A stretch of 57,636 nucleotides of DNA, taken from the sequence record SRR31156797_1773; one strand, 5' to 3'. Below are positions 15,631 to 57,636 of this stretch, piece by piece. Under the pieces are notes generated by a model, which saw only the letters and a program-made list of their open reading frames with translations, did no database searches and was not told where the DNA came from. A program made the position numbers and the translations under genes. Every line of letters starts with the position of its first letter. Positions within the stretch are counted from its first letter, which is position 1.

Positions 15631-16920
15631 ATGATAACCGATAAACTGATTCCAGAAAAGCTGGATCTGGTGATGCGTGATGATGACTTTGTGATTTATT
15701 ACGACGGTAAACCGATGAAAACTCCTGGTGGAGCACTTCTTGCTCACAGCAATGCGCGTGTGCTCAAACATATATTGATAAAGCTGCACCTGAACGCTTC
15801 TATCATTACAAAGAAGTTAAACAGTACCCATATTTTTACCTTTTTACTGGATTATATTTTAAAAGGGCATGATTTAATTGCTTCGAATTTTGAACTGGTT
15901 TTTAATCATGATTTTGTGATCATGGCGCATATGGGAGGCGATCCGGGCAAAATACACTCGAAAGATGTTGCCATCGAATATTTAATGCAGCATCCTTACC
16001 TGATGAGTCTTGTTTTTTGGAGCAATTCGGTGATCATTGAGGGTTTTAAAAGTTTTCTTAGCGGAATCGATGAACAGGCCGGTGATGAAGCTGCCAGTCC
16101 CCTGATTAAAAGGGTGAAGCGGAAATATGATGAACTTTCTGATGCACGGAAAGCCGGTGTAAACCTTCTGTCGATGCACCACAAAAATGGTTTGATTTTA
16201 CCCATGATGTTGGTACTGGGGTACATTTCACCTTCAGAATATGCAAATAGCACCTTGTCCGTGCAGGCCCGGCAGACAGACGATGGAAATCTTTTAAATG
16301 TGCTTGCTATGGCAGAAGAGGCCGGGGTAGAGTCATTTAATCTGGATGCTGAAGACCCACTTGGTTTTGTACGTGTTGTGCATGAGGAAGCCCTCAAGAC
16401 CCTTGAATTTCTTGGGTTCTTTAAGTCGGGACAGCGAAAAATTTCCGTTATCAACGAGTTGATAAGCCTTGGTGAAAGCGATCAGGTTGAATTCAAATCA
16501 ACGTTCCGCTGGGATATCCGCCAGGGAAAAAAGAACCCGGCCATCGAACATGCCTCACTCAAAACCATGGCTGCATTTCTTAATTCTGAAGGTGGCGATT
16601 TGCTTATTGGAGTAGAAGATGATGGAAATATCCTGGGCGTTGAACTGGATAACTTTCCCAACGACGATAAATTTCTGCTTCACCTATGGTCGCTCATCAA
16701 ATCATCGATGGGGCAGGACATTAGTCCGTTTATCAAAACCACATTGGAAAAAATGGATGGGAAAACGGTTTGCCGGGTGCATTGCCTGCCAGGTTCCAAG
16801 CCGGTTTTTTTGCGTCAAAAAGGTTTTGATGAGTCCTTTTATATCCGCATTGGCCCATCAAGTGGCAGGCTCGAAATCAGTGAGGCCTTAAAATATATTG
16901 CCGACAGGTTTAAATCCTGA
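15631..16920 (+). CDS. Schlafen/AlbA_2 domain protein with ATP12-chaperone-like N-terminal region
   Basis: C-terminal GESDQVEFKST, AAFLNSEGGDLLIGVEDDG..LG, FYIRIG; N-terminal FVIYYDGKPMKTPGG resembles the ATP12 LDGRxxKTP motif. Confidence 0.8.
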   Translation: MITDKLIPEKLDLVMRDDDFVIYYDGKPMKTPGGALLAHSNARVLKHILIKLHLNASIITKKLNSTHIFTFLLDYILKGHDLIASNFELVFNHDFVIMAHMGGDPGKIHSKDVAIEYLMQHPYLMSLVFWSNSVIIEGFKSFLSGIDEQAGDEAASPLIKRVKRKYDELSDARKAGVNLLSMHHKNGLILPMMLVLGYISPSEYANSTLSVQARQTDDGNLLNVLAMAEEAGVESFNLDAEDPLGFVRVVHEEALKTLEFLGFFKSGQRKISVINELISLGESDQVEFKSTFRWDIRQGKKNPAIEHASLKTMAAFLNSEGGDLLIGVEDDGNILGVELDNFPNDDKFLLHLWSLIKSSMGQDISPFIKTTLEKMDGKTVCRVHCLPGSKPVFLRQKGFDESFYIRIGPSSGRLEISEALKYIADRFKS

Positions 16921-26577: not shown

Positions 26578-28458
26578 ATGAGATTCCTGTCGACCATACT
26601 ATTTCTGAGTATTTATTTGTTGGCATCCGGGCAGGAACAGATAAAAGTGATGCACTACAACCTGCTGAATTTTGGAGTGCTAAACAGCTATTGTACCCTG
26701 GAGAATAACGATCCATCAGAAAAAATTGGTTGGGCCAAAACGATTGTGGATCATTATTTGCCCGATGTACTGGTGGTGAATGAGATTTCGCCCTCCGATT
26801 ATTACCAGAGCCTGTTTCTTGATGAGGTGATGAATACATCTGGTCGTGAAAATTATGCAAGGGCAATCGGAACAAACCAGGCAGGTTCCAATATTGCAAA
26901 CATGCTTTATTATGATGAAGATGTATTGGGAATTGCCAATCAGGACGTCATCAATTTCTGGTTACGTGATATAAACGTTTACCGGATGTATTATAAGGCC
27001 GCCGGATTATCCCAAAACAACGACACCACATTTTTGTATGTAATTTCTGCACATTTTAAAGCCGGAACCAGCGGAACAGATAAAACAACCCGGTCGCAAA
27101 TGGCAACAGCGATTGTGAATTACCTGCAGGAAAAACAGATTGCAGAAGCATGTTTACTTTGTGGTGACCTGAATTTGCAGAACAATCTTGAACCGGCTTG
27201 GAGTAACCTTACCGGTGGAAATGGTGAATATCAGTTTGTTGATCCAACGGGCCTTGAAGGTATATGGCACAATAACGCGGATTTTGCTTCGGTACATACG
27301 CAATCAACACAAACTGAATACGATGGATGCAAGGCTTCAGGCGGAATGGACGACCGTTTTGATTTTATACTGGCCAACAGTATTTTAACGGATCCGGAAA
27401 GCAAAGTGAGGTTGGTGGATGATTCATATGAAGTCCCCGGACAGGATGGGCTCAGGTTGAATGGTTCGTTGATTGATCCGCCAAATAACAGTGCACCGGC
27501 TGACGTAATTGAGGCGATGTTCAACATGTCAGATCATTTACCGGTAATAGTTGAACTTGAATTTGAGAAACTGAATCCGTTGCCTGAATCCTGGAACTAT
27601 ACAGTAACAGATGTTTTGCACGCTTTGTATTTACCTTTTGAAGTGCAGCCAACAGTAAATTCCGAGCCAATAACTGAGGGGTCGTATATTGGGATGTTTT
27701 ATACTGACGGTGGAACAGCTAATTGTGCCGGCTATAGCCAATGGGATGGAGGTACCGACATCGAACTAAAATGTTATGGAAATGATATAGCGAGCCGGAA
27801 TAAAAACGGCTTTTATGAAAATGAGCCCATTATTTTTAAGATTTTTGAAGTGCAACAACAATCTGAATATTTTGCTGGTACTGATTTTAATCCAGCATTT
27901 CCTGATCATGATGGCAGGTTTCACAGCAATGGTGTTTCGGTTTTGGATGGCCTGAATGCGGCGTACCTTCAGTATCACACCATCCTAATTAACGAAGGCT
28001 GGAATTCGCTATCCTCATTCATTGTGCCCAGATTACAAACTATCGAAAGTGTTTTTGGACCAAACTTGTCGAAGGTAATTTATATGCAGGACGGTAATTT
28101 GGAATGGTATCCCGAAGGCGGGATTTTAGATTTAACATACTGGACTGAAAATTCGTCTTTTTTACTCAAAGCCGTGGAATCATTTACTATCGATGTTGAC
28201 GGGCTTCTGGTTGATGAAACAAGTTTTATTCTCAATTTTGGTTGGAATATGATTTCAGTACCTGTGCCATGTTATGTGAATCCCGAAGATTTGGAAACAT
28301 ATCCACCCGGTGCGATAAATGCTATTCAGGCAATTTCTGACACACATGTTTTTTGGCCCGAAAAAGAAATTTTCACCCTGGATTTGCTGGTTCCTGGAAA
28401 TGCCTACCTGGTTTATGTAACAGACGACTGCTCCCTGACAATTGAATCCTGCAAATAA
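26578..28458 (+). CDS. Secreted endonuclease/exonuclease/phosphatase (EEP) domain protein with C-terminal beta-sandwich modules
   Basis: VMHYNLL, PDVLVVNEI, HFKAG, CGDLN, DRFDFIL, SDHLPV; signal peptide. Confidence 0.87.
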   Translation: MRFLSTILFLSIYLLASGQEQIKVMHYNLLNFGVLNSYCTLENNDPSEKIGWAKTIVDHYLPDVLVVNEISPSDYYQSLFLDEVMNTSGRENYARAIGTNQAGSNIANMLYYDEDVLGIANQDVINFWLRDINVYRMYYKAAGLSQNNDTTFLYVISAHFKAGTSGTDKTTRSQMATAIVNYLQEKQIAEACLLCGDLNLQNNLEPAWSNLTGGNGEYQFVDPTGLEGIWHNNADFASVHTQSTQTEYDGCKASGGMDDRFDFILANSILTDPESKVRLVDDSYEVPGQDGLRLNGSLIDPPNNSAPADVIEAMFNMSDHLPVIVELEFEKLNPLPESWNYTVTDVLHALYLPFEVQPTVNSEPITEGSYIGMFYTDGGTANCAGYSQWDGGTDIELKCYGNDIASRNKNGFYENEPIIFKIFEVQQQSEYFAGTDFNPAFPDHDGRFHSNGVSVLDGLNAAYLQYHTILINEGWNSLSSFIVPRLQTIESVFGPNLSKVIYMQDGNLEWYPEGGILDLTYWTENSSFLLKAVESFTIDVDGLLVDETSFILNFGWNMISVPVPCYVNPEDLETYPPGAINAIQAISDTHVFWPEKEIFTLDLLVPGNAYLVYVTDDCSLTIESCK

Positions 28459-28562
28459 TCCGATTCTTTTCTTATAAATTTTCTGTTTTTCATCATTATT
28501 CCTTTAAGTCAAATATCTCTGGATGTGCCTATTCATGATGGTTTTGGTAATTATTTTCCCGA

Positions 28563-28635
28563 TCAGTGTTTTCTGCCATCTTTTTAAGCAGGTGATATTC
28601 AGCCATGCAAATTGCTGGTGGCCAGGCTACATTTG
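28563..28635 (+). promoter_or_regulatory. Promoter of paralog 1: paired operator half-sites plus -7 box
   Basis: TTCTGCCA 28571-28578, TTCAGCCA 28598-28605, TACATTTG 28628-28635. Confidence 0.7.
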
Positions 28636-28701
28636 TATCATTAGTTCAACAAACAAAAAAGTTCTTTTACAAATTTTATTCATTTAAAAACAGAGGTTAT
28701 T

Positions 28702-29046
28702 ATGAAAACTTTAAATGTGATTTTAGTAGCAGTATTGGTGACGCTGACCACCATGGGCATGGCCCAAAACGTTGACAAGGTAGACCCGGTGTTCATTTCC
28801 AAGATGATCCCGATTGCATCAATCGATGTGAATTCAGGAATTGGCAGCGCAATTGCAGCCCAGGTTGATGCAAAGTTGTTCCTTTCAGGGAATAATCATA
28901 ACGGTATGTACGTGGCCACCGTTAGGTACGGTGGTAAGGTTTACAAAATTTATGGTACCTACATTCAGTGGGTACGTTTTTTGAGAGTCAATCCCAATCC
29001 TTTACCATCTGAAAAAGCTGATAAAAGTGGTAAAAAGATTGAGTAA
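28702..29046 (+). CDS. Small secreted protein, paralog 1 of 3
   Basis: Signal peptide ending GMAQ; QVD..LF...Y.A.V..GG.VYKIYGTY.QW.RF motif shared with neighbours. Confidence 0.88.
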   Translation: MKTLNVILVAVLVTLTTMGMAQNVDKVDPVFISKMIPIASIDVNSGIGSAIAAQVDAKLFLSGNNHNGMYVATVRYGGKVYKIYGTYIQWVRFLRVNPNPLPSEKADKSGKKIE

Positions 29047-29068
29047 AACATTTTTTTTTAAACTTCAG

Positions 29069-29094
29069 GGCCGCCTTCTGGTGGCCTTTTTTTT
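29069..29094 (+). terminator. Intrinsic terminator of paralog 1
   Basis: GGCCGCC-TTCT-GGTGGCC followed by T8. Confidence 0.88.
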
Positions 29095-29111
29095 GCACTC
29101 AGGCTATATGT

Positions 29112-29182
29112 TAGTAGATTCTGCCATTTTTATATTGAAGTAGATTCTGCCAAGGATTGAATTGCATGTGATTGTAGCTTTG
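29112..29182 (+). promoter_or_regulatory. Promoter of paralog 2: perfect 14-bp direct repeat plus -7 box
   Basis: AGTAGATTCTGCCA at 29113-29126 and 29139-29152; TAGCTTTG 29175-29182. Confidence 0.78.
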
Positions 29183-29229
29183 TTTTGTTGATTTAATTAA
29201 AAGTTCATACAAATAAAATGGAGGTTATT

Positions 29230-29568
29230 ATGAAAACTTTAAGAATCGTTTTACTGGCACTTTTTGCCACGTTCACATTGGTTTCGTTCGCTCAGCGTAG
29301 CGATAGGAACCATGCACAATTCAAATCTGAAATTGTGAAGATCACCACAATCGACAAAAGTTCAGCGCTTGGGCAAACCATCTTAAAACAGGTTGATCCT
29401 GATAAGTTGTTTAAAGACCGGGAACGTACGGGAACTTACATCGCAGTAGTTACATTTAATGGCGACCAGATAAAAATTTACGGAACATACTGGCAGTGGT
29501 TCAGATTTCTGAAATTGCATTACAGGGACTGGCCCAGCGTTGGCGAAGGAGATCCTCCGTTGCGATAG
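29230..29568 (+). CDS. Small secreted protein, paralog 2 of 3
   Basis: Start set at MKTL by homology; signal peptide ending SFAQ; QVDPDKLF...YIAVV...KIYGTYWQWFRF. Confidence 0.88.
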   Translation: MKTLRIVLLALFATFTLVSFAQRSDRNHAQFKSEIVKITTIDKSSALGQTILKQVDPDKLFKDRERTGTYIAVVTFNGDQIKIYGTYWQWFRFLKLHYRDWPSVGEGDPPLR

Positions 29569-29590
29569 TCGATGCTACGGTTACAAAAGG

Positions 29591-29620
29591 AGGCCATCTG
29601 TTTAGGTGGTCTTTTTTTTT
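29591..29620 (+). terminator. Intrinsic terminator of paralog 2
   Basis: AGGCCATCT-GTTT-AGGTGGTCT followed by a T tract. Confidence 0.85.
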
Positions 29621-29636
29621 GATCAGGAACACCCGC

Positions 29637-29708
29637 TAGCTGAATACAGCTATATTTTCTGATCGGGATAATCTGCTATTATTTCTGATGGCCCGGAACT
29701 TAGTTTTG
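29637..29708 (+). promoter_or_regulatory. Promoter of paralog 3: palindromic operator, second half-site and -7 box
   Basis: TAGCTGAATACAGCTA 29637-29652, ATCTGCTA 29671-29678, TAGTTTTG 29701-29708. Confidence 0.7.
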
Positions 29709-29758
29709 TCCTATCTTATTTAAACTATGGTTCACGAATAATAAAAACGGAGGTCATA

Positions 29759-30100
29759 ATGAAAGCTTTAAAAATGGTTTTAGTCACAATATTTGTTGTA
29801 TTTAGTGTAATGACATATTCCAGTGAATCTAATTCGCTGTCAGTTTCAAAGGTACCAGTAATGCTTGCGCATACTACAGCAAAGCATCTGCCAGAAGTTG
29901 TTTATTCTATAAATACCCAGGTTAATCCTGAGGTGTTGCTGGCCAGCAGCGAAAAAGTAATGCTCACAGCTAATGTAAAAGTTGATACACACAGTTACAT
30001 AATTTATGGTACCTACAAAGAATGGTATGAATTCTTTTATTCAAACGAGAAAAACATTCCCTTTGAGCAAGCAGATAAGTCCGAACGAAAAACGGAGTAA
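29759..30100 (+). CDS. Small secreted protein, paralog 3 of 3
   Basis: Signal peptide; QVNPEVLL...A.V......IIYGTYKEWYEF; C-terminus PFEQADKSERKTE matches paralog 1 PSEKADKSGKKIE. Confidence 0.88.
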   Translation: MKALKMVLVTIFVVFSVMTYSSESNSLSVSKVPVMLAHTTAKHLPEVVYSINTQVNPEVLLASSEKVMLTANVKVDTHSYIIYGTYKEWYEFFYSNEKNIPFEQADKSERKTE

Positions 30101-30120
30101 TTAGTTAGTCTATAGGATGG

Positions 30121-30144
30121 AAGCCGCCTTCGCGTGGCTTTTTT
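30121..30144 (+). terminator. Intrinsic terminator of paralog 3
   Basis: AAGCCGC-CTTCGC-GTGGCTT followed by a T tract. Confidence 0.75.
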
Positions 30145-30623
30145 ATACCCTGGCTTCAAGGTATATCTCTTTGGTTAAAATGCTGGTTTGTCTGTTCACG
30201 AAAATATGTTTGATTATTGATACCAGCTCTGATATGTATCTGGTAATATTATGAAACGGAGCATCAAACGTTGGTGCTCAAGGTGAGATAATTGTCAGGT
30301 AACTGGCTTTCCTTTAAAAAATTCTCATGCACACTTTTTCATATGCACAAACCACATAATTGTGCCCTCAAAGTAATTCGTGATTGAGCGGAAAGTGCGG
30401 GAAATGTTTTAAATCAAAAAAAATTGCCATTATTTTGGGTTTAAAAGGCTACCCATAAAGTCACTTTACCAGGTTTAAATATTTTTTTACCATCCATCAC
30501 TTCTGAAACAGACCAGCAATTAGACACAGGCATAATGCTATGAAAAGGTGGTTACTATTGCTGTCTTTAACCAGGCTCAAAACGTTAACAATGAACAGTT
30601 GGAATAGGTCCGAATAAAACCAT

Positions 30624-30654
30624 AAAAGGAAAGCTGCCAGGACAGCAGCTTTCC
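30624..30654 (-). terminator. Intrinsic terminator of the kinase/regulator operon
   Basis: Minus strand GGAAAGCTGC-TGTCCTG-GCAGCTTTCC-TTTT. Confidence 0.85.
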
Positions 30655-30693
30655 AAAGGGGCAAATGAAAAAGGGGGTAAAAAGGGGCAAATC
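30655..30693 (-). repeat. Three C-rich repeats in the 3' UTR (candidate sRNA seed)
   Basis: Plus strand AAAGGGGCAAATG, AAAGGGGGTAAA, AAAGGGGCAAATC. Confidence 0.7.
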
Positions 30694-30717
30694 AAAAATT
30701 CAAAATGGCTTTGTCTT

Positions 30718-31356
30718 TTAATCAACAAAATCATTTTCAACAGCCCAGCGAACCAGGCCTGCGGTATTTTTTGTCCCGCTCTTGTGCATTAGGTTTGCAC
30801 GATGACTTTCCACAGTGTGAAAACTGATAAAAAGCTTATCGGCAATTTCCTGTGATGAGTGTTCCTTGCATATCAGGTTCAGGATCTCCAACTCACGCGC
30901 GGTAAGTTTCGGGAAAAGAGAACTTGTGTTCTCAAGTTTTAATTCCTGATTTACGAGGCTTATGGATAAATGTGGACTGAAATACTTTTCTCCCTGGTTA
31001 ACTTTTTGTATGGCCTCAATAAGGTCGTCCCTACTCGAATCTTTAAGCAGATAACCGTCAGCACCATACTTGAGCATTCGTTTTACAAATCGTTTTTCGC
31101 TGTATTGCGAGAGGGCAATAATTTTAACTCCGGGAAATGCCCTGGTAACTTTTTTTGTGGCATCGAGCCCGTCGAGCTTGGGCATATTGATGTCCATCAG
31201 GATCACATCCACCTCAAGGCCTTCTTCAAGTTGCCTGATCACCTCGTAACCATTGGATGCGTCGGCAACGATCTCAACTTCAGTTGAATCGGCAAGCGTT
31301 GTTTTAATGCCACCAATCATCAACGGGTGATCATCGGCAATCATAATTTTAATCAT
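30718..31356 (-). CDS. NarL/LuxR-family response regulator
   Basis: IADDH, ILMDINMP, GADGYLLK receiver; LTARELEIL..I......EIADKLFIS.HTVESHRANLM.K LuxR HTH. Confidence 0.96.
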   Translation of the reverse strand: MIKIMIADDHPLMIGGIKTTLADSTEVEIVADASNGYEVIRQLEEGLEVDVILMDINMPKLDGLDATKKVTRAFPGVKIIALSQYSEKRFVKRMLKYGADGYLLKDSSRDDLIEAIQKVNQGEKYFSPHLSISLVNQELKLENTSSLFPKLTARELEILNLICKEHSSQEIADKLFISFHTVESHRANLMHKSGTKNTAGLVRWAVENDFVD

Positions 31357-31368
31357 ACCTGAATTTTT

Positions 31369-33459
31369 TTAGTTTGTCGATACATTTAAGGTAAATCTGG
31401 TACCTTGTCCCGGTGATGAAATCATATTAATATTTCCTCCCAGGTATTCTGAACGTGACTTAATGCTGGTAAGGCCAATTGTCTTTTGCCCAATTTTCTC
31501 ATCAACATTAAATCCTTTGCCATTGTCCCGATACTCAAGAGTAAGTGTATTATCTTGAATTTTTATCATGAGTATAACCTCAGTTGCCTCAGCATGTTTA
31601 ATGGTGTTATTGATCATTTCCTGTACAATACGGTAGAGCATAAACTCCTTCCGCTCTGAAAATCGCTGTTCTTCACCTTCAATCGTGAAATGGGCTTTAA
31701 TTGTACCTGATTCATTTACTTGTTCTATCAGGTCGTCAACTGCTTCAAACAAACCATACTTTGAAAGCAAGCCCGGCATCATGTTGTGGGTTATTTTTCT
31801 AACCTCGTTTGCTGCCATTTCCAGCAACTTGGTAGCGTTGTTGATTTTAGGCCGGTTATCAGGGTTGATGCCATCAATGGAAGTAAACTGCATTTTTGCA
31901 GTCGATAGCAATACCCCGATGCCATCATGCAATTCTTTGGCAATGCGTTTGCGTTCCTCTTCCTGGCCTTCGAGCAAAAACTGGGCGGAAATCAGTTTTT
32001 TGTCTTTTTCGAGTTGCCGGATTCGTTGCATGGCCAAATAGTTATCATTTTTACTTTTGGCTCTCAAAAATATAAATACGAAAACTGCAATTAAAACGAT
32101 TCCTGCGGTTAAAAACAGGTATATGTTGCGCTGGTTGGTTCGTTTCCTGAGTATGAGGTCTTTTTCCAGGTTTAAGTTGGTTAGCGTAAGGATTCTGGCC
32201 TGGTCTTCTTCACGCTCATAAATCATTCGTAGTTCCGCAATGTCTTTCTTGTTTAGCTGATTCAGAATACTGTCTCTGCTTTTATAATAAGCAGTTTGAA
32301 AATAAAGGGCATTTTTATAATCCTTTACATCCAGGTAGTAACTGTGATATTTATCCATGATATCGATTATGGTCTCATAGGATCCGATTGTTTTAGCCAT
32401 TCTGTAACTCGAATCCAATAATGTCTTGGCTTCTGGCTTGAGTCCAAGCTTTGCAAGCGCTTCCCCTTTGCTCGAAACTGCAGTAATGTAGCCAATGGGA
32501 TAGCTTTCGAAGGTAAACGTTTCCAGGGTAAGGTTGAACTTTTCAAGAGCCTTTTTATATGCATTCTTTTTTAAATACAGATTACCCATGTTAATACGCA
32601 GATTATTGATCCCTATTATATTATCAAGGCTTTGCATTATTTTATATGACTTATTAAAGAACATCATCGCTGAATCCAAATGGTCAGATTTCATTTCAAC
32701 AATGCCGAGCTTGGTATAGGCAAGAGCAACATGATTGAGATTGCTGATTTTACGGTTAAACGGGATGCTCCGTATCAAGTAATCACGAGCCAGAGAATCG
32801 TAACCCATGAGCATGTACAGATCTCCAATATTGATTAAAGCTGCTGCAATTCCAATTTCAAAATTTTTGTTTTCAGATTTTTTTAAAACTTCGAGAAAAT
32901 ATTTTGCTGCTACCTGATACATCGCAAACTTTTTGTAAATGATACCCAGCATATTTCCGGCACTGATTTGACCGTCCTCGTACCTTAGTTTTTGAAATAT
33001 TTCATTTGCCTGTAAAGCATATACAAGTGCTGAGTCAGGACCATAAACCCTGCTTAAAATTTTACTCTTTTGTAGATACCCATTTGCAAATGCAGCACTA
33101 TCATTTGTTAATTTTGCCAGTCTCAGATAAGTTTCTGTGTAGATTAGAGCACTATCAAATTTACCGCTTATTTTAAATGCATTGGTCAGGCTGTATGCGA
33201 TTAATTTTTGACCTTTAATGTATTTGAGATCCTGAGCTATTTCGTAAGCCTCTGTTCCGGTTTTTTGTGCTTCTGTTGGATTGCTTTTGTGAATATCTTT
33301 TATCCAGTTGTTGATGCTGTCAATTTTAGCTTTGTTGTTTTTATGATTAAGAAATGGATTAACAGGTTCATCATTAGCATTTGCCGGTAGGTAGTTTACG
33401 CAAATCAATAGTGATAAACATAAATAAGCAGCCTGATATATCCAATGTCTTATTAGCAT
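31369..33459 (-). CDS. TPR-repeat membrane sensor histidine kinase (HisKA_3 + HATPase)
   Basis: Signal peptide, TPR-like repeats (NMLGIIY, INIGDLY, TKLGIV, INMGNLY), one TM helix, EEERKRIAKELHDGIG, YRIVQE..NN..KHA, DNGKGF, GQGT. Confidence 0.95.
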   Translation of the reverse strand: MLIRHWIYQAAYLCLSLLICVNYLPANANDEPVNPFLNHKNNKAKIDSINNWIKDIHKSNPTEAQKTGTEAYEIAQDLKYIKGQKLIAYSLTNAFKISGKFDSALIYTETYLRLAKLTNDSAAFANGYLQKSKILSRVYGPDSALVYALQANEIFQKLRYEDGQISAGNMLGIIYKKFAMYQVAAKYFLEVLKKSENKNFEIGIAAALINIGDLYMLMGYDSLARDYLIRSIPFNRKISNLNHVALAYTKLGIVEMKSDHLDSAMMFFNKSYKIMQSLDNIIGINNLRINMGNLYLKKNAYKKALEKFNLTLETFTFESYPIGYITAVSSKGEALAKLGLKPEAKTLLDSSYRMAKTIGSYETIIDIMDKYHSYYLDVKDYKNALYFQTAYYKSRDSILNQLNKKDIAELRMIYEREEDQARILTLTNLNLEKDLILRKRTNQRNIYLFLTAGIVLIAVFVFIFLRAKSKNDNYLAMQRIRQLEKDKKLISAQFLLEGQEEERKRIAKELHDGIGVLLSTAKMQFTSIDGINPDNRPKINNATKLLEMAANEVRKITHNMMPGLLSKYGLFEAVDDLIEQVNESGTIKAHFTIEGEEQRFSERKEFMLYRIVQEMINNTIKHAEATEVILMIKIQDNTLTLEYRDNGKGFNVDEKIGQKTIGLTSIKSRSEYLGGNINMISSPGQGTRFTLNVSTN

Positions 33460-33500
33460 TTGCCCCTAAATTTTGTTGTTTTATTGGCCTGATTGGTTAC

Positions 33501-33959
33501 CTAGGCCTGATTCTCCTCCTCCAGGATGGGTTCTTCCATGATCCTGACCAGATCAATATCAGCGTCTTCAGAAATGTAGGTAACTGTTTTCCGGCCATCT
33601 GATCCGGCAACTTCCACCGTTACACGGTACCTTGACATTAAAGCATCGTCCTGCCCCTGATACCATAGTGCGCAATTGCCTACTGTTCTGGCGGTTCCAT
33701 CGTCAGGCCTTGAACACTTGCCAAGGCTCACCGTATCTGTATATCTGTATTGGGTATCTCTGTTGTAATTGGTGTCTGTTGTTACATCTTCAGTAAAAAT
33801 GTATTTGATTTTGGTTTTATCGTTGCCTTCAAATATGTGAGATTGGGGTGGTACAAGTTTTTTACCCTTAAACTGTGGAAGCCTGATGTTTACATCCAAT
33901 TTGATGTCGTCACCATCTGGTCTTACAGACAGGCCAACGAAGGATTCATAATTTTTCAT
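33501..33959 (-). CDS. Hypothetical protein (152 aa) with ISEDADIDL motif
   Basis: Open frame directly upstream of the kinase; motif shared with the next ORF. Confidence 0.8.
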   Translation of the reverse strand: MKNYESFVGLSVRPDGDDIKLDVNIRLPQFKGKKLVPPQSHIFEGNDKTKIKYIFTEDVTTDTNYNRDTQYRYTDTVSLGKCSRPDDGTARTVGNCALWYQGQDDALMSRYRVTVEVAGSDGRKTVTYISEDADIDLVRIMEEPILEEENQA

Positions 33960-34012
33960 AATTTTAGATTTTCAATGCTATTAATAAATTGAATTCGGAA
34001 TTTGAAATTTAA

Positions 34013-34426
34013 TTACGCAGTAAGGTCTATATCTGCATCTTCTGAAATACCGGTAATGTTGCTGCCCTCAATTGAGCCATCAGTTTCTTTAAAGACTGCG
34101 TTAAGTTTGAACCGTGCATTATAGCCGTATTGACTTAAATAGTCTTTGATAATAACCCTGAGCTTCTCATCGGTAACTTCATTTGGAATTTGAACTATAA
34201 TACTGAGTTTGATTTCCAGCGTAGCTGTAAAGTTGCCGGCGATTCCGGTCTGTGGCCTTTTTTTGAAAATTACTTCAAACTCAATGCCTGAACCATTGAT
34301 CACTATTTGGTCATAGGTAATTTGGTCAGTAACTATTTTATTGATTACAGATTTTAAATAAATTGCATTTTGCTTTTTATGGTATACAAAGCTTAGTTTT
34401 TGAAAGATTTCATTTGATTTTTTCAT
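34013..34426 (-). CDS. Hypothetical protein (137 aa) ending ISEDADIDLTA
   Basis: Open frame co-oriented with the kinase operon; motif shared with the previous ORF. Confidence 0.8.
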   Translation of the reverse strand: MKKSNEIFQKLSFVYHKKQNAIYLKSVINKIVTDQITYDQIVINGSGIEFEVIFKKRPQTGIAGNFTATLEIKLSIIVQIPNEVTDEKLRVIIKDYLSQYGYNARFKLNAVFKETDGSIEGSNITGISEDADIDLTA

Positions 34427-34571
34427 TGCTGGAAATTTTGTGGGTTAATATGCCCATAAAGGTACAACATTTTGAACGTCAATGCAAATCATACTATTAT
34501 AATCTTATGACACCACAATATTAATTTGAATTTATGGTACATATATAACTGAAATTGATGATAAGAAAAAA

Positions 34572-34587
34572 TAGCAGAATTCTGCCA
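34572..34587. promoter_or_regulatory. Palindromic operator-like site TAGCAGAATTCTGCCA
   Basis: Core GCAGAATTCTGC is a perfect palindrome; both halves match the TTCWGCYA half-site of the three paralog promoters. Confidence 0.6.
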
Positions 34588-34637
34588 GTGAATGTGCGTG
34601 GACAGAATAACTGTAGCTTTGTACTTTATTTAAGATT

Positions 34638-35402
34638 ATGTTAACCAGAAAGCAAATTACACAAATCCGGTCGTTGCAACATAAAAAATACCGTGACAAG
34701 TATGGGGAGTTCATTGTGGAAGGCCCAAAACTTGTAGCCGAACTTTTGAAAAGCGATTTTCATATTTCAGCCATTTTTGTTACCGATGATCATAGAGATT
34801 GGATTAGCAAACAAAACGATCTTAATTTGACACCCACAATTGTTTCAGCCTCCGATCTTAGGCGGATCAGCCATTTTAAATCGCCAAACGGAATTCTGGC
34901 CGTTATTAAACAGCCATCGCATCAGTTAGACCAGCTGAATTTCAAAGAAGATTTTGTTTTGATGCTTGATGGAATAAGTGACCCCGGGAACCTGGGTACA
35001 ATAATACGCACCGCTGAATGGTTTGGAATTAGAAACATTATTTGCTCCTACAACTGCGTGGAGCTTTACAACCCAAAAGTGGTACAATCAACGATGGGTT
35101 CTTTGTTCAGAACAAAAGTCTATTACACTGATCTTTTGGAATTGCTTCCGGATATCAAGCAACAGGTACCGGTTTTTGGGACATTTCTCACAGGAGAGAA
35201 TATTTACAGACAAAATTTTGAAAGTTCTGGAGTATTGGTGATAGGGAGTGAATCACATGGCATTAGCCCTGAAGTTGCTAAATTTATTGATGTGCGAATA
35301 CATATACCTTCTATTAAAAAAGGGGCAGAATCATTAAATGCTTCTGTGGCAGCCGCCATTTGTTGTTCAGAGATCAGAAGGCCTAAATTAAAGGATATTT
35401 AA
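34638..35402 (+). CDS. TrmH/SpoU family RNA methyltransferase
   Basis: FIVEG.K, LDGISDPGNLGTIIRTAEWFG, NPKVVQSTMGS, IGSESHGI, ESLNASVA. Confidence 0.95.
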   Translation: MLTRKQITQIRSLQHKKYRDKYGEFIVEGPKLVAELLKSDFHISAIFVTDDHRDWISKQNDLNLTPTIVSASDLRRISHFKSPNGILAVIKQPSHQLDQLNFKEDFVLMLDGISDPGNLGTIIRTAEWFGIRNIICSYNCVELYNPKVVQSTMGSLFRTKVYYTDLLELLPDIKQQVPVFGTFLTGENIYRQNFESSGVLVIGSESHGISPEVAKFIDVRIHIPSIKKGAESLNASVAAAICCSEIRRPKLKDI

Positions 35403-54930: not shown

Positions 54931-56670
54931 TTAGATCGAAGCGATTGAATCTTTGAAATAGGAAGGGGTGAGGCCGGTGATTTTTTTAAAATTTTTATGA
55001 AATGCCACCCTGGAGTTGTAGCCGGCCATTTCTCCAACTGCTTCAATGGAGAGATGGTTGTATTTTGAATTGGTGAGGAATTGCCGCGCCGCTTTAACCC
55101 TGAATTCATTGATAACTGTGTTGAAGTTTTTTTGGTAAACCTCGTTGATGGCCTTTGAAAGATAGGTTCGGTTGGTTTCGAGCACGGGGCAAATGTCATC
55201 AATCTTCAGGTCGCTGTACAGGTAGGGCTTCTCGTCGAGCATATATGCATTGAACTTCTTTATGAGTTCAGCATTTTTGTCATTTTCTGCGGGCTGATAT
55301 CCTGGGATATTATCCGGCTTGATATTTCTTTTTTCGATGAGTTCACGATCGTATTCGGCCAATTCCAGGTTTTTGGCAACCAGGTTTCGGTAGGCAATTG
55401 TTCTTTTACGAAGCAGAAACAGGATCAATGAGATGAGGAGCAGGAGCACAATCAATCCGATGGTGAGGTAAAGAATGTGTAGCTCCTTTATTTCATTTTC
55501 AGTTTTCAGTTCTATGTTTTCTTTTTCCTTTTTCTCGGTTTCGTATTTTATTTCCAGTTCGGCAATTTTTGATCTGGTATTTTCACCCACCACCGAGTCC
55601 TTCATCTCGCTATACTGCCGGAAATACGCGAGGGCTTGTTGGGTTTTTCCCATTTTTTCATAAACCTCAGCCAGTTTTTCATTAGTCAGATATATCCTGT
55701 TTTTGGCGTTTAATGCTTCGGCAACGGATAAAGATTCATGGAGGTACAACAGTGCTTCATTGTAATTTTCTTCTGATATAAATATTCCTGCGATGTTGAA
55801 ATTTACAAGCGATAATCCAAATTTATCACCTGTTTTGGAAATGATTGATTTTGCCTGCTGGTAGTAGTACAAAGCACTGTCGGGGTTGCCGATGTTGGAA
55901 TGGATGTTTGCCACGTTGTTGTAAATGGCCGTTTGGTAGCGCAGGTGATTTATTTTTTTGGCAATTGCTAGGGCCATAAAATAGTTTTGCATGGCCAGGC
56001 TAAAGTTTTTCCGGGCTTTATAAACCATACCCATGTTTGACAATGAAGCAGTGATACGGATGCTATCGTTTATGTCCTGTGCATTTCTTAATGCCTTGTT
56101 ATAATATTCAAGGGGTTTTTCCAAACTATCAAGATTGTAGTAAAGCAATCCGATGTTTGTATATAAAATGGCTGATAATCTTTTGGCGGAGGATTCTTTG
56201 TCTGGATTCAGGATGAGTGTGTCACAACTTTTTTCAGCCTTTTGGAAATTATCGATGGCTTTATCATAATCACCCATCTGCATGTATGTATCTCCAATGA
56301 AGTTTGTGATTACCGAACCATCCAGGTATTCACCTGCATCAAAAAAGAGTTTTTCCGACCTGAAAAAATACTTCAGGCTCTTTTCATAATTTCCTTTGCT
56401 GTAATTGGCATAGCCGATTTTTTTCCAGGCATCAGCTTCCTCTGCTTTGTCTCCTAAGTTTTTTGCGATTTCAACAGCCAAAAGCCCGTACTTTTCGCAA
56501 CTATCCAGCGATTGGAACATACAGCCACGTGTAAGGGTTTGAAGGATTTCGAGTTTCTCTAAACCCTCGGTTTCTTCAAGCTTCAGTTTGAGGCTATCAT
56601 TTGTGGCTGAAGAAACCTGAACAAGAAGAGAGATGGTTATTGTAATCGCAATTCTTATCATCAAATTCAT
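54931..56670 (-). CDS. Membrane-spanning TPR-sensor AraC-family regulator
   Basis: Signal peptide, TPR repeats, TM helix, KPYL..DL.I......TNRTYLS.AIN...NF...IN.FRV..A, GY.S...F...FKKITGLTPS. Confidence 0.93.
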   Translation of the reverse strand: MNLMIRIAITITISLLVQVSSATNDSLKLKLEETEGLEKLEILQTLTRGCMFQSLDSCEKYGLLAVEIAKNLGDKAEEADAWKKIGYANYSKGNYEKSLKYFFRSEKLFFDAGEYLDGSVITNFIGDTYMQMGDYDKAIDNFQKAEKSCDTLILNPDKESSAKRLSAILYTNIGLLYYNLDSLEKPLEYYNKALRNAQDINDSIRITASLSNMGMVYKARKNFSLAMQNYFMALAIAKKINHLRYQTAIYNNVANIHSNIGNPDSALYYYQQAKSIISKTGDKFGLSLVNFNIAGIFISEENYNEALLYLHESLSVAEALNAKNRIYLTNEKLAEVYEKMGKTQQALAYFRQYSEMKDSVVGENTRSKIAELEIKYETEKKEKENIELKTENEIKELHILYLTIGLIVLLLLISLILFLLRKRTIAYRNLVAKNLELAEYDRELIEKRNIKPDNIPGYQPAENDKNAELIKKFNAYMLDEKPYLYSDLKIDDICPVLETNRTYLSKAINEVYQKNFNTVINEFRVKAARQFLTNSKYNHLSIEAVGEMAGYNSRVAFHKNFKKITGLTPSYFKDSIASI

Positions 56671-56877: not shown

Positions 56878-57636
56878 ATGAAATACACAGGTAAGATGTT
56901 GGCGTTTTTGGTTATTATATTATCAACCATTATTACCTGTTTCAATTGTAATTCATGGCACCAGGGCGATAAATTGCTGGTCATCTCCTTAAAAACCGGC
57001 CTGGCTAAAAACAATGGTGCTACACCCTGGTATGCCGAACTTTCAATTGGTTCTGGAGATCAACAACAGCTCTTTAAACTGATCATGGATACCGGTACCG
57101 GGAGCACCTGGATTACTTCTGTTGCATGCACCACCAATGCCTGCATGCATCACCGACGGTATAATCCTGAACTGTCAGCTTCGCACCTTTGGATAGATAC
57201 CATGGAAAGACACAGCGAACTTGGCCCGTGGGGAGCTTTTAGTTTTAAGATGGGAATGGATCAATGGAATTTCATGGCTGAAAAATCTACCCAGACAGGT
57301 AGCCTAAAAAATATTGAAGTACCAGGAATGCAGTTCCTCGAAGCCACCAACCTCATCGATGGGAAGAACCCTGACGGGAGTTATAATTCAAATTGGGACG
57401 ACCTGGTTCAGGAAGGCTCTTTAGCTTTTCCATCCATAAATACATCTGGCCCTTCCGCACAGATTTTGGATTTACTTTTGAAGGAGCAGTTGATCGATCA
57501 TAAAATTATGAGTTATTGGACTTCGCAGGAACTTAACAGGGGTGAGGTCATCCTTGGCGGAATCGACACAAAAAAATTTGTTAAGGAAACGCTCCACTAT
57601 TTTCCGGTCGTTAGAAATATTGCAAAAGCAGACCAT
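56878..57636 (+). CDS. Pepsin-family (A1) aspartic protease, 3'-truncated by window edge; not in the ORF track
   Basis: Manual translation, open to window end: signal peptide, PWYAELSIGSGDQQQLFKLIMDTGTGSTWITSVACTTNACMHHRRYNPELSAS ... GEVILGGIDTKKF...LHYFPV. Confidence 0.88.
   Translation, partial: MKYTGKMLAFLVIILSTIITCFNCNSWHQGDKLLVISLKTGLAKNNGATPWYAELSIGSGDQQQLFKLIMDTGTGSTWITSVACTTNACMHHRRYNPELSASHLWIDTMERHSELGPWGAFSFKMGMDQWNFMAEKSTQTGSLKNIEVPGMQFLEATNLIDGKNPDGSYNSNWDDLVQEGSLAFPSINTSGPSAQILDLLLKEQLIDHKIMSYWTSQELNRGEVILGGIDTKKFVKETLHYFPVVRNIAKADH

Follow-up and report, generated by a model that had tools for sequence, protein, structure and literature searches.

What does a TPR-containing histidine kinase sense and control when its operon opens with two small proteins sharing an acidic C-terminal motif and converges on a row of three small exported proteins? 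The locus that raises this question lies in a stretch of 57,636 nucleotides, which was analysed as a whole and is called the window here. Open reading frames and domain matches bore out the gene set of the initial annotation: motif proteins A and B, a TPR kinase and a NarL/LuxR regulator on the minus strand, and three S paralogs with signal peptides on the plus strand. These seven genes, with their hairpins, are as follows.

28702..29046, plus strand: S1, exported small protein of 114 aa, Shine-Dalgarno-like AGAGGT at 28692-28697
29067..29088, plus strand: S1 terminator hairpin and T run, from a hairpin scan
29230..29568, plus strand: S2, 112 aa if begun at the ATG in register with the S1 and S3 starts (the ORF list gives 29218 instead), GGAGGT at 29220-29225
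29759..30100, plus strand: S3, 113 aa, GGAGGT at 29749-29754
30628..30654, minus strand: terminator-like hairpin (12 pairs) and T run 3' of the regulator gene, from a hairpin scan
30718..31356, minus strand: NarL/LuxR-type response regulator, 212 aa, receiver and GerE helix-turn-helix
31369..33459, minus strand: sensor histidine kinase, 696 aa, with signal-peptide-like N-terminus, TPR region (about 45-430), membrane segment (443-470), HisKA_3 (502-563) and HATPase_c (607-693)
33501..33959, minus strand: motif protein B, 152 aa, paralog of A, ending in TVTYISEDADIDL and a 15-aa acidic tail
34013..34426, minus strand: motif protein A, 137 aa, no hydrophobic segment, C-terminus GISEDADIDLTA

The kinase belongs to the HisKA_3 class, with HisKA_3 (1.4e-08) followed by HATPase_c (1.3e-12) in its Pfam matches and TPR_12 (1.6e-13) covering the sensor; ELHDGIG within the HisKA_3 match was invariant in four orthologs. 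A single strong membrane segment, 443-470, stands ahead of the cytoplasmic HisKA_3 core, and because the TPR region lies between this segment and the signal-peptide-like N-terminus, the predicted topology is one in which the TPR sensor must face the periplasm. Response_reg (9.6e-27, residues 4-117) and GerE (1.5e-15, residues 150-205) matches placed the regulator in the NarL/FixJ (LuxR-type) class. The best NCBIfam matches of the pair were MctS/MctR and UhpB, all far below equivalog cut-offs; for the MctS and MctR equivalogs (NF052443, NF052445), scores were 114.4 versus 700 bits and 173.7 versus 300 bits, respectively. Similarly, the kinase reached 52.8 bits against the cut-off of 600 for the FimS equivalog (NF053520), with the TPR region alone matching (E 2e-14).

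In hhalign, A and B matched as homologs from end to end (97.7%, E 2.3e-12, 130 columns), and 13 of 32 residues were identical in their C-terminal stretch (BLASTP, E 3e-4). Both carry the C-terminal motif ISEDADIDL, preceded by Y in B, and since the two copies differ at synonymous codon positions, this conservation is at the protein level. A third motif-protein type, C, was found in other genomes, and the conserved C-terminal module of the motif proteins reads [ST]-[ED]-[DN]-[AS]-D-I-[DE]-L. The acidic motif was invariant among homologs just 30-35% identical and common to two N-terminal scaffolds with no alignable similarity outside it (hhalign 3%); types A and C carry it at or close to their C-terminal end, and in type B it is followed by 3-15 more residues. 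The N-terminal 120 residues of A and B make up a conserved folded beta-rich domain, not a leader; operon-leading motif proteins have 104-158 aa and lack a leader or signal peptide. Hydropathy scans of A and B found no hydrophobic segment or signal peptide either (highest 19-residue values 1.25 and 0.23, respectively). A beta-sandwich model and an I-x-L ending prompted a look for HSP20/alpha-crystallin, and Pfam gave no such match for the motif proteins at E up to 0.1-1; the fold search with this model returned generic Ig-like sandwiches alone, at Z 4.3 or less.

S2 and S3 are paralogs of S1 (36% and 28% identical) with a common core, IYGTYxxWxxF, and an N-terminal hydrophobic segment was present in each of the three. 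At E up to 0.1, Pfam showed the T9SS sorting domain Por_Secre_tail in none of S1-S3, A and B; the search did recover this domain from four other window proteins. The S proteins also lack a lipobox or other lipoprotein export signal, and they have no conserved cysteines. Because sorting domain and lipobox are both absent, the S proteins would be held in the periplasm, and we infer that they are a periplasmic output in the same compartment as the sensor. They number 1 to 7 copies per genome, scattered, with tandem arrays of diverged paralogs that reach seven in one genome (G405:C78). In the sequence itself, hairpins similar to that of S1 lie 3' of S2 and S3, the S3 hairpin and its T run at about 30120-30146.

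A strong Shine-Dalgarno sequence preceded 35 of the 35 S genes found, in a class whose ribosomes ignore such sequences. In this the S genes resemble rpsU (bS21) of Flavobacterium johnsoniae, for which the available parts of two sources describe translational autoregulation with a strong Shine-Dalgarno sequence in an otherwise Shine-Dalgarno-blind class (PMC13000453, PMC9976891). Unlike that ribosomal protein gene, however, the S genes are a whole family encoding exported proteins.

A, B and S had no match in Pfam, PDB or fold searches and none among PADLOC models; against PHROGs, A gave two rows (E 0.02 and 0.046), both of unknown function. Thus neither small-protein family, the A/B motif proteins or the S proteins, is described so far, as had been surmised.

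The two halves of the locus had been proposed to share an operator-like motif, present in the three S promoters and upstream of the kinase operon. This motif proved to be part of a fixed promoter module that occurs above chance: two 9-bp boxes, WWTCWGCYA, lie 26 bp apart (27 at S1) and are followed after exactly 22 nt by a Bacteroidota -7 box.

28570..28635, plus strand: S1 module, distal box TTTCTGCCA at 28570-28578, proximal box ATTCAGCCA at 28597-28605 (27-bp spacing), -7 box TACATTTG at 28628-28635
29118..29182, plus strand: S2 module, ATTCTGCCA at 29118-29126 and 29144-29152 (26 bp), -7 box TAGCTTTG at 29175-29182
29637..29708, plus strand: S3 module, palindromic distal box TAGCTGAATACAGCTA at 29637-29652, proximal box AATCTGCTA at 29670-29678, -7 box TAGTTTTG at 29701-29708
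34516..34523, minus strand: predicted -7 box of the operon, TAATATTG, exactly 22 nt past the proximal box
34546..34554, minus strand: proximal box of the operon promoter, TTTCAGTTA, degenerate, its start 26 bp from that of the distal box
34572..34587, minus strand: distal box of the operon promoter, ATTCTGCTA at 34572-34580, part of a longer near-palindrome of 16 bp, TGGCAGAATTCTGCTA

The full module (box, 26-27 bp, box, 22 nt, TAnnnTTG) occurred exactly four times in the 57.6-kb window, at S1, S2, S3 and the operon. ATTCTGCYA alone had four window matches, all inside the locus (1.04 expected; 2 of 100 shuffles reached four), and TTCTGCYAT had six, three of them in the locus (1.25 expected; 0 of 100 shuffles reached six). 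From the position of its -7 box, the operon transcript would have a 5' UTR of about 85-90 nt. Across 28 modules, C4 and A9 were invariant in both boxes, while G6 and C7 each had no exception in one of the two boxes and were retained in 25 of 28 copies of its partner. Full dyad symmetry was seen in a minority of sites, the boxes being mostly direct repeats, and the 26-bp spacing puts them on opposite faces of the DNA helix.

The same element recurred in other genomes, where it again behaved as a common cis-regulatory sequence. It was found in 10 of 10 S and operon promoters of the window and loci L001-L006, and three chance matches elsewhere in that search departed from the distal box at 4-5 positions. 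Three whole MAGs (17.9 Mb) gave eight matches, all before S or motif-protein genes, versus none in the reversed control, and all 23 genomes of the GTDB family gave 15 matches in seven genomes, again versus none. Among these 23, the 14 genomes without S genes had no module, which was seen only in carriers of the system. Five of the 15 family-wide modules were not at S or motif-protein genes; three of them preceded other signal-peptide proteins and two had no downstream gene. Of the 22 distinct modules in the loci collected at that stage, 16 preceded an S gene and the other six a motif-protein gene. At each of the four close loci the module stood ahead of the kinase/regulator operon, and it also headed other operons whose first gene is of type C; genomes at a greater distance have AAACCACYA as their distal box.

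Gene content supported the claim that the operon and S halves form one conserved unit. The order ApbE, SpoU / A, B, kinase, regulator / convergent S genes was conserved in G001 (kinase 52% identical), G002 (39%) and G003 (50-65%), and also in G417, G404 and G410. In the 23-genome family, a kinase ortholog was present in seven genomes (plus a fragment in G403), A in six and S in nine, as one overlapping subset; in an order-wide sample of 401 genomes, S was strongly present in nine, all nine of which also had a motif protein, although system-carrying genomes are related and these co-occurrences are not independent events. Type C was present in 10 genomes of that sample, with G353 taken from separate locus data. 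Furthermore, the linkage of motif-protein homologs to TPR kinases elsewhere, on which the initial proposal hinged, was found: in 16 of 19 loci, some of them with regulator and S genes relocated, the gene immediately upstream of an orthologous TPR kinase encoded a motif protein and had the same orientation, whereas two (L110, L114) had no kinase in view. Rearranged loci still had S genes adjacent to the kinase or regulator; the tightest linkage to the kinase, however, was that of the motif proteins.

We read this locus, with a probability of roughly 0.6, as a clade-restricted, self-activating two-component regulon of Lentimicrobiaceae-like Bacteroidales. The phosphorylated regulator would bind both boxes, a step to which co-location and co-inheritance point. 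If the -7 box spans -12 to -5, as the available part of one source gives for the Bacteroidota box TAnnTTTG (PMC9723704), the boxes would be centred near -42 and -68, and the regulator on them is quite likely a class-II-type activator replacing the -33 element. Binding would then lead to positive autoregulation of the operon and induction of the S genes. Weighing against this reading are the scarcity of full dyad symmetry, the opposite-face placement of the boxes, the five family-wide modules away from S and motif-protein genes, the altered distal box of distant genomes and the two loci with no kinase in view. For A, B and S, which resemble no recognised fold or family, any role is a conjecture drawn from the gene neighbourhood; we tentatively place A, B and C as cytoplasmic accessory partners of the kinase or the regulator that may act via their conserved C-terminal module.

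An analogy to RRNPP quorum sensing had been drawn for the kinase, with a motif peptide as its input. RRNPP receptors are cytoplasmic TPR proteins that carry an output domain (helix-turn-helix or phosphatase) and bind re-imported peptides; the TPR region here is extracytoplasmic and part of a kinase, and A and B have no export signal, so the analogy is not supported. Pheromone precursors have a signal or leader peptide and are exported and processed to a short peptide; A and B show no hydrophobic segment, and the cluster encodes no transporter, exporter or peptidase. One could nevertheless suppose that the motif proteins, or a peptide released from the ISEDADIDL end, are the input, the periplasmic TPR region binding the acidic C-terminus as TPR clamps bind EEVD tails in a quorum- or kin-lysis-type loop. 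TPR domains are known binders of C-terminal peptides, the motif is invariant between poorly conserved homologs and across two scaffolds, with a terminal or near-terminal position in types A and C, and motif-protein genes come first in the kinase operon at 16 of 19 loci, as pheromone precursor genes do in plnABCD-type operons. Such an input is improbable, however, given a sensor that must be periplasmic and no visible delivery route to it: A and B lack a signal peptide or membrane segment, the cluster offers no leader-type cleavage site, the N-terminal domain is folded and the type B motif is not terminal. A somewhat better, still unlikely, candidate is the S family, whose members would act on the TPR sensor from within the periplasm, either as its ligands or as modulators in a feedback loop, much as CpxP does on CpxA, with the motif proteins as co-expressed cargo. 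The shared compartment and the persistence of S genes beside the kinase or regulator through rearrangements favour it, as does the protein signal suggested for the FimS TPR sensor in the available part of PMC5706477, but one to seven scattered copies suit an output family better than a dedicated ligand, and it is the motif proteins that are linked most tightly to the kinase.

The boxes might also be read by a different regulator, or by an alternative sigma factor, whose gene lies outside the locus, the adjoining two-component system controlling something else. Many NarL-family sites are inverted repeats, unlike these mostly direct ones, and some modules lie at unrelated genes or at none. Yet the module heads the kinase/regulator operon in the close loci and the type C-led operons, is confined to system carriers and has an ordinary -7 box of the type used by the housekeeping sigma factor, which leaves little room for such a reader. 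Least probable of all, the S family would be diversifying, secreted, bacteriocin-like antagonists under two-component control, with motif proteins as cytoplasmic immunity or helper factors. Promoters with direct repeats are a feature of class II bacteriocin regulons, which the separate promoter of each S copy and the arrays of diverged paralogs recall; however, S proteins have no evident route across the outer membrane, lacking a T9SS C-terminal domain or lipoprotein signal, no toxin-like fold or family was found for them, and conserved cysteines are absent.

The self-activating regulon favoured here shares elements with several known systems. NarXL, UhpBA, LiaSR and MctSR likewise pair a HisKA_3 and HATPase_c kinase with a receiver and GerE regulator in an autoregulated operon, but here the sensor is a periplasmic TPR array and the operator a 9-bp box pair, 26 bp apart, 22 nt before a Bacteroidota -7 box. 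In the Firmicutes peptide-pheromone regulons (plnABCD, comCDE, agrBDCA), a small gene leads an operon with a LytTR regulator and an ABC exporter. Leading small genes, positive autoregulation and a set of small exported products, each with its own promoter carrying two direct repeats, are common to both, whereas the regulator here is GerE-type, the leading proteins are folded and leaderless, and no ABC exporter or peptidase is present. In CpxP/CpxA and ZraP/ZraS, a small periplasmic protein is induced by a system with its sensor domain in that compartment, as predicted here for S, which has no sequence or fold similarity to CpxP or ZraP. FimS/FimR of Porphyromonas gingivalis likewise has a Bacteroidales kinase with a periplasmic multi-TPR sensor, of eight TPRs, and the available part of the source suggests a possibly proteinaceous signal; it names fimbrial gene targets and, in that part, mentions no motif-protein genes, S family or two-box module (PMC5706477). 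By analogy, the ligand of the TPR sensor here may be a protein.

A bolder extension, which we regard as a long shot, is that the acidic C-terminal module is a handle docking three small cytoplasmic scaffolds that differ in other respects (A, B and C) onto the kinase, gating it from inside, or from outside via the TPR sensor after kin lysis. The S regulon would then be doubly controlled, by the regulator at transcription and by a strong Shine-Dalgarno sequence readable mainly by bS21-free ribosomes with an exposed anti-Shine-Dalgarno. If true, this docking and double control would mean that Bacteroidia couple an envelope or protein signal to the condition of their ribosome pool.

The seven genes under study encode the motif proteins A and B, a TPR-containing kinase, a NarL/LuxR-type regulator and the three paralogous small exported proteins S1-S3. 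They lie in a Bacteroidota chromosome segment that otherwise carries ordinary housekeeping genes and four proteins with T9SS sorting domains, and occupy the interval between the following flanks.

26578-28458, plus strand: gene of a 626-aa exported protein, one flank of the cluster, directly upstream of S1
30628-30654: strong terminator-like hairpin after the regulator gene
34638-35402, plus strand: SpoU-type methyltransferase gene, the other flank
Minus strand, in gene order: A (137 aa), B (152 aa), kinase (696 aa), regulator (212 aa)

Gaps of 53, 41 and 12 nt separate A from B, B from the kinase and the kinase from the regulator, respectively, and the three S genes on the plus strand are convergent with this operon. 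A scan placed a terminator-like hairpin after S1, and comparable hairpins with T runs were seen in the sequence 3′ of S2 and S3; an Rfam search of 28300-34800 at E up to 0.1 gave no match. Pfam assigned TPR_12, HisKA_3 and HATPase_c to the kinase and Response_reg plus GerE to the regulator. The nearest NCBIfam models were MctS/MctR, UhpB and NarL-type systems for the pair and FimS for the TPR region, every score falling far under the equivalog cut-off.

The flanking 626-aa exported protein gave only a weak endonuclease/exonuclease/phosphatase match (E 0.018), and its gene has no two-box module of its own; in a related genome (G417, locus L039) its place is taken by a 652-aa protein whose C-terminal end is similar. 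Elsewhere in the window, a second TPR regulator, of cytoplasmic type, is encoded at 54931-56670 on the minus strand (579 aa, TPR repeats fused to an AraC-type helix-turn-helix), and a Schlafen AlbA_2 domain (E 1.4e-18) is present in the 429-aa product of 15631-16920 on the plus strand, a gene whose neighbours encode an amylase and an exonuclease. The open reading frame at 56878-57636 on the plus strand, which runs off the window end, matched the Pfam 'eukaryotic aspartyl protease' family PF00026 at E 1.6e-18; proteases of the pepsin type are uncommon in bacteria.

The motif ATTCTGCYA was found four times in the window, against 1.04 expected, and all four matches fell within the seven-gene cluster. 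Comparison of orthologous loci defined a longer module, in which two 9-bp WWTCWGCYA boxes, spaced 26 bp start to start (27 bp at S1), are followed by a T-rich spacer and a -7 box. The distance from the proximal box end to the -7 box is exactly 22 nt, and the latter reads TAnnTTTG at S genes and TAnnnTTG at operons. TAnnTTTG is reported as the -7 box of the Bacteroidota housekeeping sigma factor, at -12 to -5 (PMC9723704), which centres the two boxes near -42 and -68. No -33 element occurs at the usual distance, and the layout suggests a class-II activator site. Among 28 modules, C4 and A9 were invariant in both boxes, and G6 and C7 were each invariant in one box and retained in 25 of 28 in the other. 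A minority of the boxes form a full 16-bp palindrome, as TAGCAGAATTCTGCTA does twice in the orthologous locus L001; the conserved unit is thus the direct repeat. A terminator role for the operon palindrome was considered and rejected, since no minus-strand gene ends upstream of it.

Matches to the two-box module, by search space
Window, 57.6 kb: 4 matches, one each at the operon, S1, S2 and S3
Three whole MAGs, 17.9 Mb: 8 matches versus 0 in the reversed control, each preceding an S or motif-protein gene
GTDB family, 23 genomes: 15 matches, in 7 genomes; reversed control 0

The eight matches in the three MAGs included two previously unknown loci, and the 14 genomes of the GTDB family that lack S genes gave no match at all. 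Ten of the 15 family-wide modules precede S or motif-protein genes, two (L085 and L087, in related MAGs) have no downstream gene, and three precede other signal-peptide proteins of related MAGs:

L082, 1614-2129, plus strand: AhpC/TSA-like exported protein of 172 aa
L081, 1715-3013, plus strand: signal-peptide protein, family unknown
L084, 3-1181, minus strand: signal-peptide protein, family unknown

When one mismatch per box was allowed, all 22 distinct modules in the loci gathered at that stage preceded one of the small-protein genes, of the S family in 16 cases and of a motif protein in six. In more distant genomes (L093-L099; G314, G073, G353, G330, G096 and G224), the distal box reads AAACCACYA plus an A run; L093-L099 retain the -7 box and, 22 nt before it, the proximal box.

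The initial annotation had recognised neither small-protein family, and database searches agreed: A, B and S had no Pfam, NCBIfam or PADLOC match, PHROGs returned only two rows at E 0.02-0.05, and PDB sequence profile searches found nothing for A and B and, for S, two rows at E 0.2. A and B are paralogous to each other (hhalign 97.7%, E 2.3e-12 over 130 columns), and their ISEDADIDL copies differ at synonymous sites. Relatives were few, a word-indexed search of about 5.8 billion clusters yielding one for A, three for B and two for S1. With the B profile, HMMER scanned 1.84 billion representatives in full and returned 12 matches at E 1e-3 or better, nine of them 140-152-aa family members; the three long repetitive ones (P0013, P0015 and P0017) were judged spurious. 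DGRKTVTYISEDADIDL is invariant in the first four B sequences, themselves 32-36% identical, and across 14 sequences the motif residues I129, S130 and A133 do not vary at all, D132, I135 and D136 hardly at all. The structure model of B is beta-rich (pLDDT 67) and found no Foldseek match at E 1e-3 or better, the best VIA Z of 4.3 going to generic Ig-like sandwiches. That of S has a beta-alpha-alpha-beta-beta-alpha core (pLDDT 69 overall, 77-91 in the core), no Foldseek match and a best VIA Z of 3.2. An ESM Atlas search with S1 and B gave no usable match. A, B and S are real, rare and unclassified small proteins.

Other genomes encode a third type of motif protein, C. It is about 104 aa long and ends in NASENSDIELI, and its alignment with A is confined to the last ~30 residues (hhalign 3%). 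Type C retains 48-68% identity between genomes in which the kinases have diverged far more, and usually stands first in the operon, in the order C, A-like, kinase. Its genes include:

L036, 9428-9745, minus strand: type C gene
L104, 6804-7118, minus strand: type C gene
L103, 5036-5350, minus strand: type C gene
L018, 1181-1495, minus strand: type C gene

With the kinase as query, MAGs labelled Lentimicrobiaceae or Bacteroidales yielded orthologous loci:

L001: ApbE, SpoU, then A, B, kinase, regulator
L002: flanks as in L001; three or more S genes, and just one A-type protein, whose C-terminus reads IAENADIDID
L003 and L006 (from a single MAG): A, B and the kinase, plus two S genes

The B alignment retrieved no loci from the genome and metagenome contigs; these are pattern misses rather than absences, because the kinase query of the same genome collection recovered B homologs in L001 and L003. 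The A, B and S families were absent at the more distant TPR kinases (L004, L005 and L007-L010) and at a streptococcal kinase (L011). In the 23-genome GTDB family, a kinase ortholog occurs in seven genomes, plus a fragment in G403, A in six, B in three and S in nine, and the carriers form one overlapping subset. Of 401 genomes sampled evenly from the order, one contained B, 10 type C and nine strong S matches; 14 S rows were returned, and five weak ones (E 7e-6 to 8e-4, open frames of 257-842 aa) were left out of the S count. All nine S-carrying genomes also have a motif protein (A or B in G001 and G002, A in G353, C in the other six), a count over related genomes, many of them fragmented MAGs.

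Linkage of the small-protein homologs to TPR kinases elsewhere, on which the initial annotation had staked its reading, held up: at 16 of 19 loci examined, a motif-protein gene is followed by a TPR kinase gene on the same strand, often in the order C, A-like, kinase. Of the other three, L074 lies on a contig that ends in an unscored open frame, and L110 and L114 have no kinase in view. Furthermore, in G353, G096, G350 and G224 the gene order has changed, the regulator no longer adjoins the kinase, S genes are scattered among the others, and the families are still together, which argues for functional coupling beyond inherited synteny alone. The circuit and its operator are real, and their conservation is limited to a narrow clade.

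Kinases of the periplasmic-TPR type are common among Bacteroidota, and we know of no ligand or accessory factor for any of them. The kinase studied here starts with a short hydrophobic, signal-peptide-like stretch, as do both orthologs with complete N-termini, and has one strong membrane segment at 443-470. Because the ATP-dependent core is C-terminal to this segment, the TPR region of ~400 residues must face the periplasm. The TPR region of FimS is likewise reported to be periplasmic, and a 2017 review only surmises that the FimS signal is a protein (PMC5706477). Each of S1-S3 carries an N-terminal hydrophobic segment and no cysteine, hence no lipobox, and a Pfam search found no T9SS domain; from these three features we infer a periplasmic location, and the S proteins are probably periplasmic outputs. 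A and B have not a single hydrophobic segment, which points to the cytoplasm.

The initial annotation is confirmed in what it observed and supported in part in how it read the circuit: the conserved gene set and common operator stand, and the topology lends no support to RRNPP-like sensing. A peptide derived from the motif proteins would have to arrive as an extracellular input, and no export route is visible for them, so that this source of the signal is very improbable. Feedback of the S proteins on the TPR sensor, which would share a compartment with them, is unlikely. A co-folding prediction of the TPR region (30-440) with mature S1 (24-114), run without controls, scored 0.00 and counts neither for nor against such feedback. 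Within the demonstrated gene set, topology constraints, promoter module and co-inheritance, we favour a reading in which the regulator would bind the boxes and activate its own operon and the S genes (probability roughly 0.7). The motif proteins might act from the cytoplasm on the kinase or the regulator through their shared C-terminal module, a tentative proposal to which we give somewhat less than an even chance.

The S genes also share a translational signal. All 35 distinct S genes in 10 genomes, those of other genomes being from L040-L068, carry (A/G)GGAG(G/A)T 4-6 nt before the ATG, and the only strong Shine-Dalgarno sequences among the 37 genes of the window are the three of the S genes, at 28692-28697, 29220-29225 and 29749-29754. 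Shine-Dalgarno sequences reportedly go unrecognised by the ribosomes of Bacteroidia, and in F. johnsoniae the same reports name rpsU as the only gene with a strong one, serving bS21 autoregulation (PMC13000453, PMC9976891). Upstream of rpsU, AAGAGGT was present in four of five related MAGs examined. The 5′ UTRs of 11 S genes showed no structure beyond shuffled controls (z -0.5 to +1.6), and their Shine-Dalgarno sequences were not sequestered in any significant structure. To our knowledge, the S family appears to be the first non-ribosomal Bacteroidia gene set uniformly equipped with a strong Shine-Dalgarno sequence, which may mark specialised translation.

The two-component regulon itself is ordinary in its logic. 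With it come accessory proteins of two or three undescribed families, a promoter module that is exceptionally well defined, and the odd translational signal. A full-text literature search found no description of such a system; the families are nameless, so a text search does not settle priority. If the Shine-Dalgarno sequences of the S genes are functional, these genes would be a natural target regulon for the bS21-dependent 'blind ribosome' mechanism. The locus is a compact and unusually well-defined case, with an exact promoter module that predicts the regulon and an exported output family, and its kinase nearly always comes with one to three small proteins sharing the terminal motif. What TPR sensor kinases sense, and which factors help them, is thereby made testable with few constructs.
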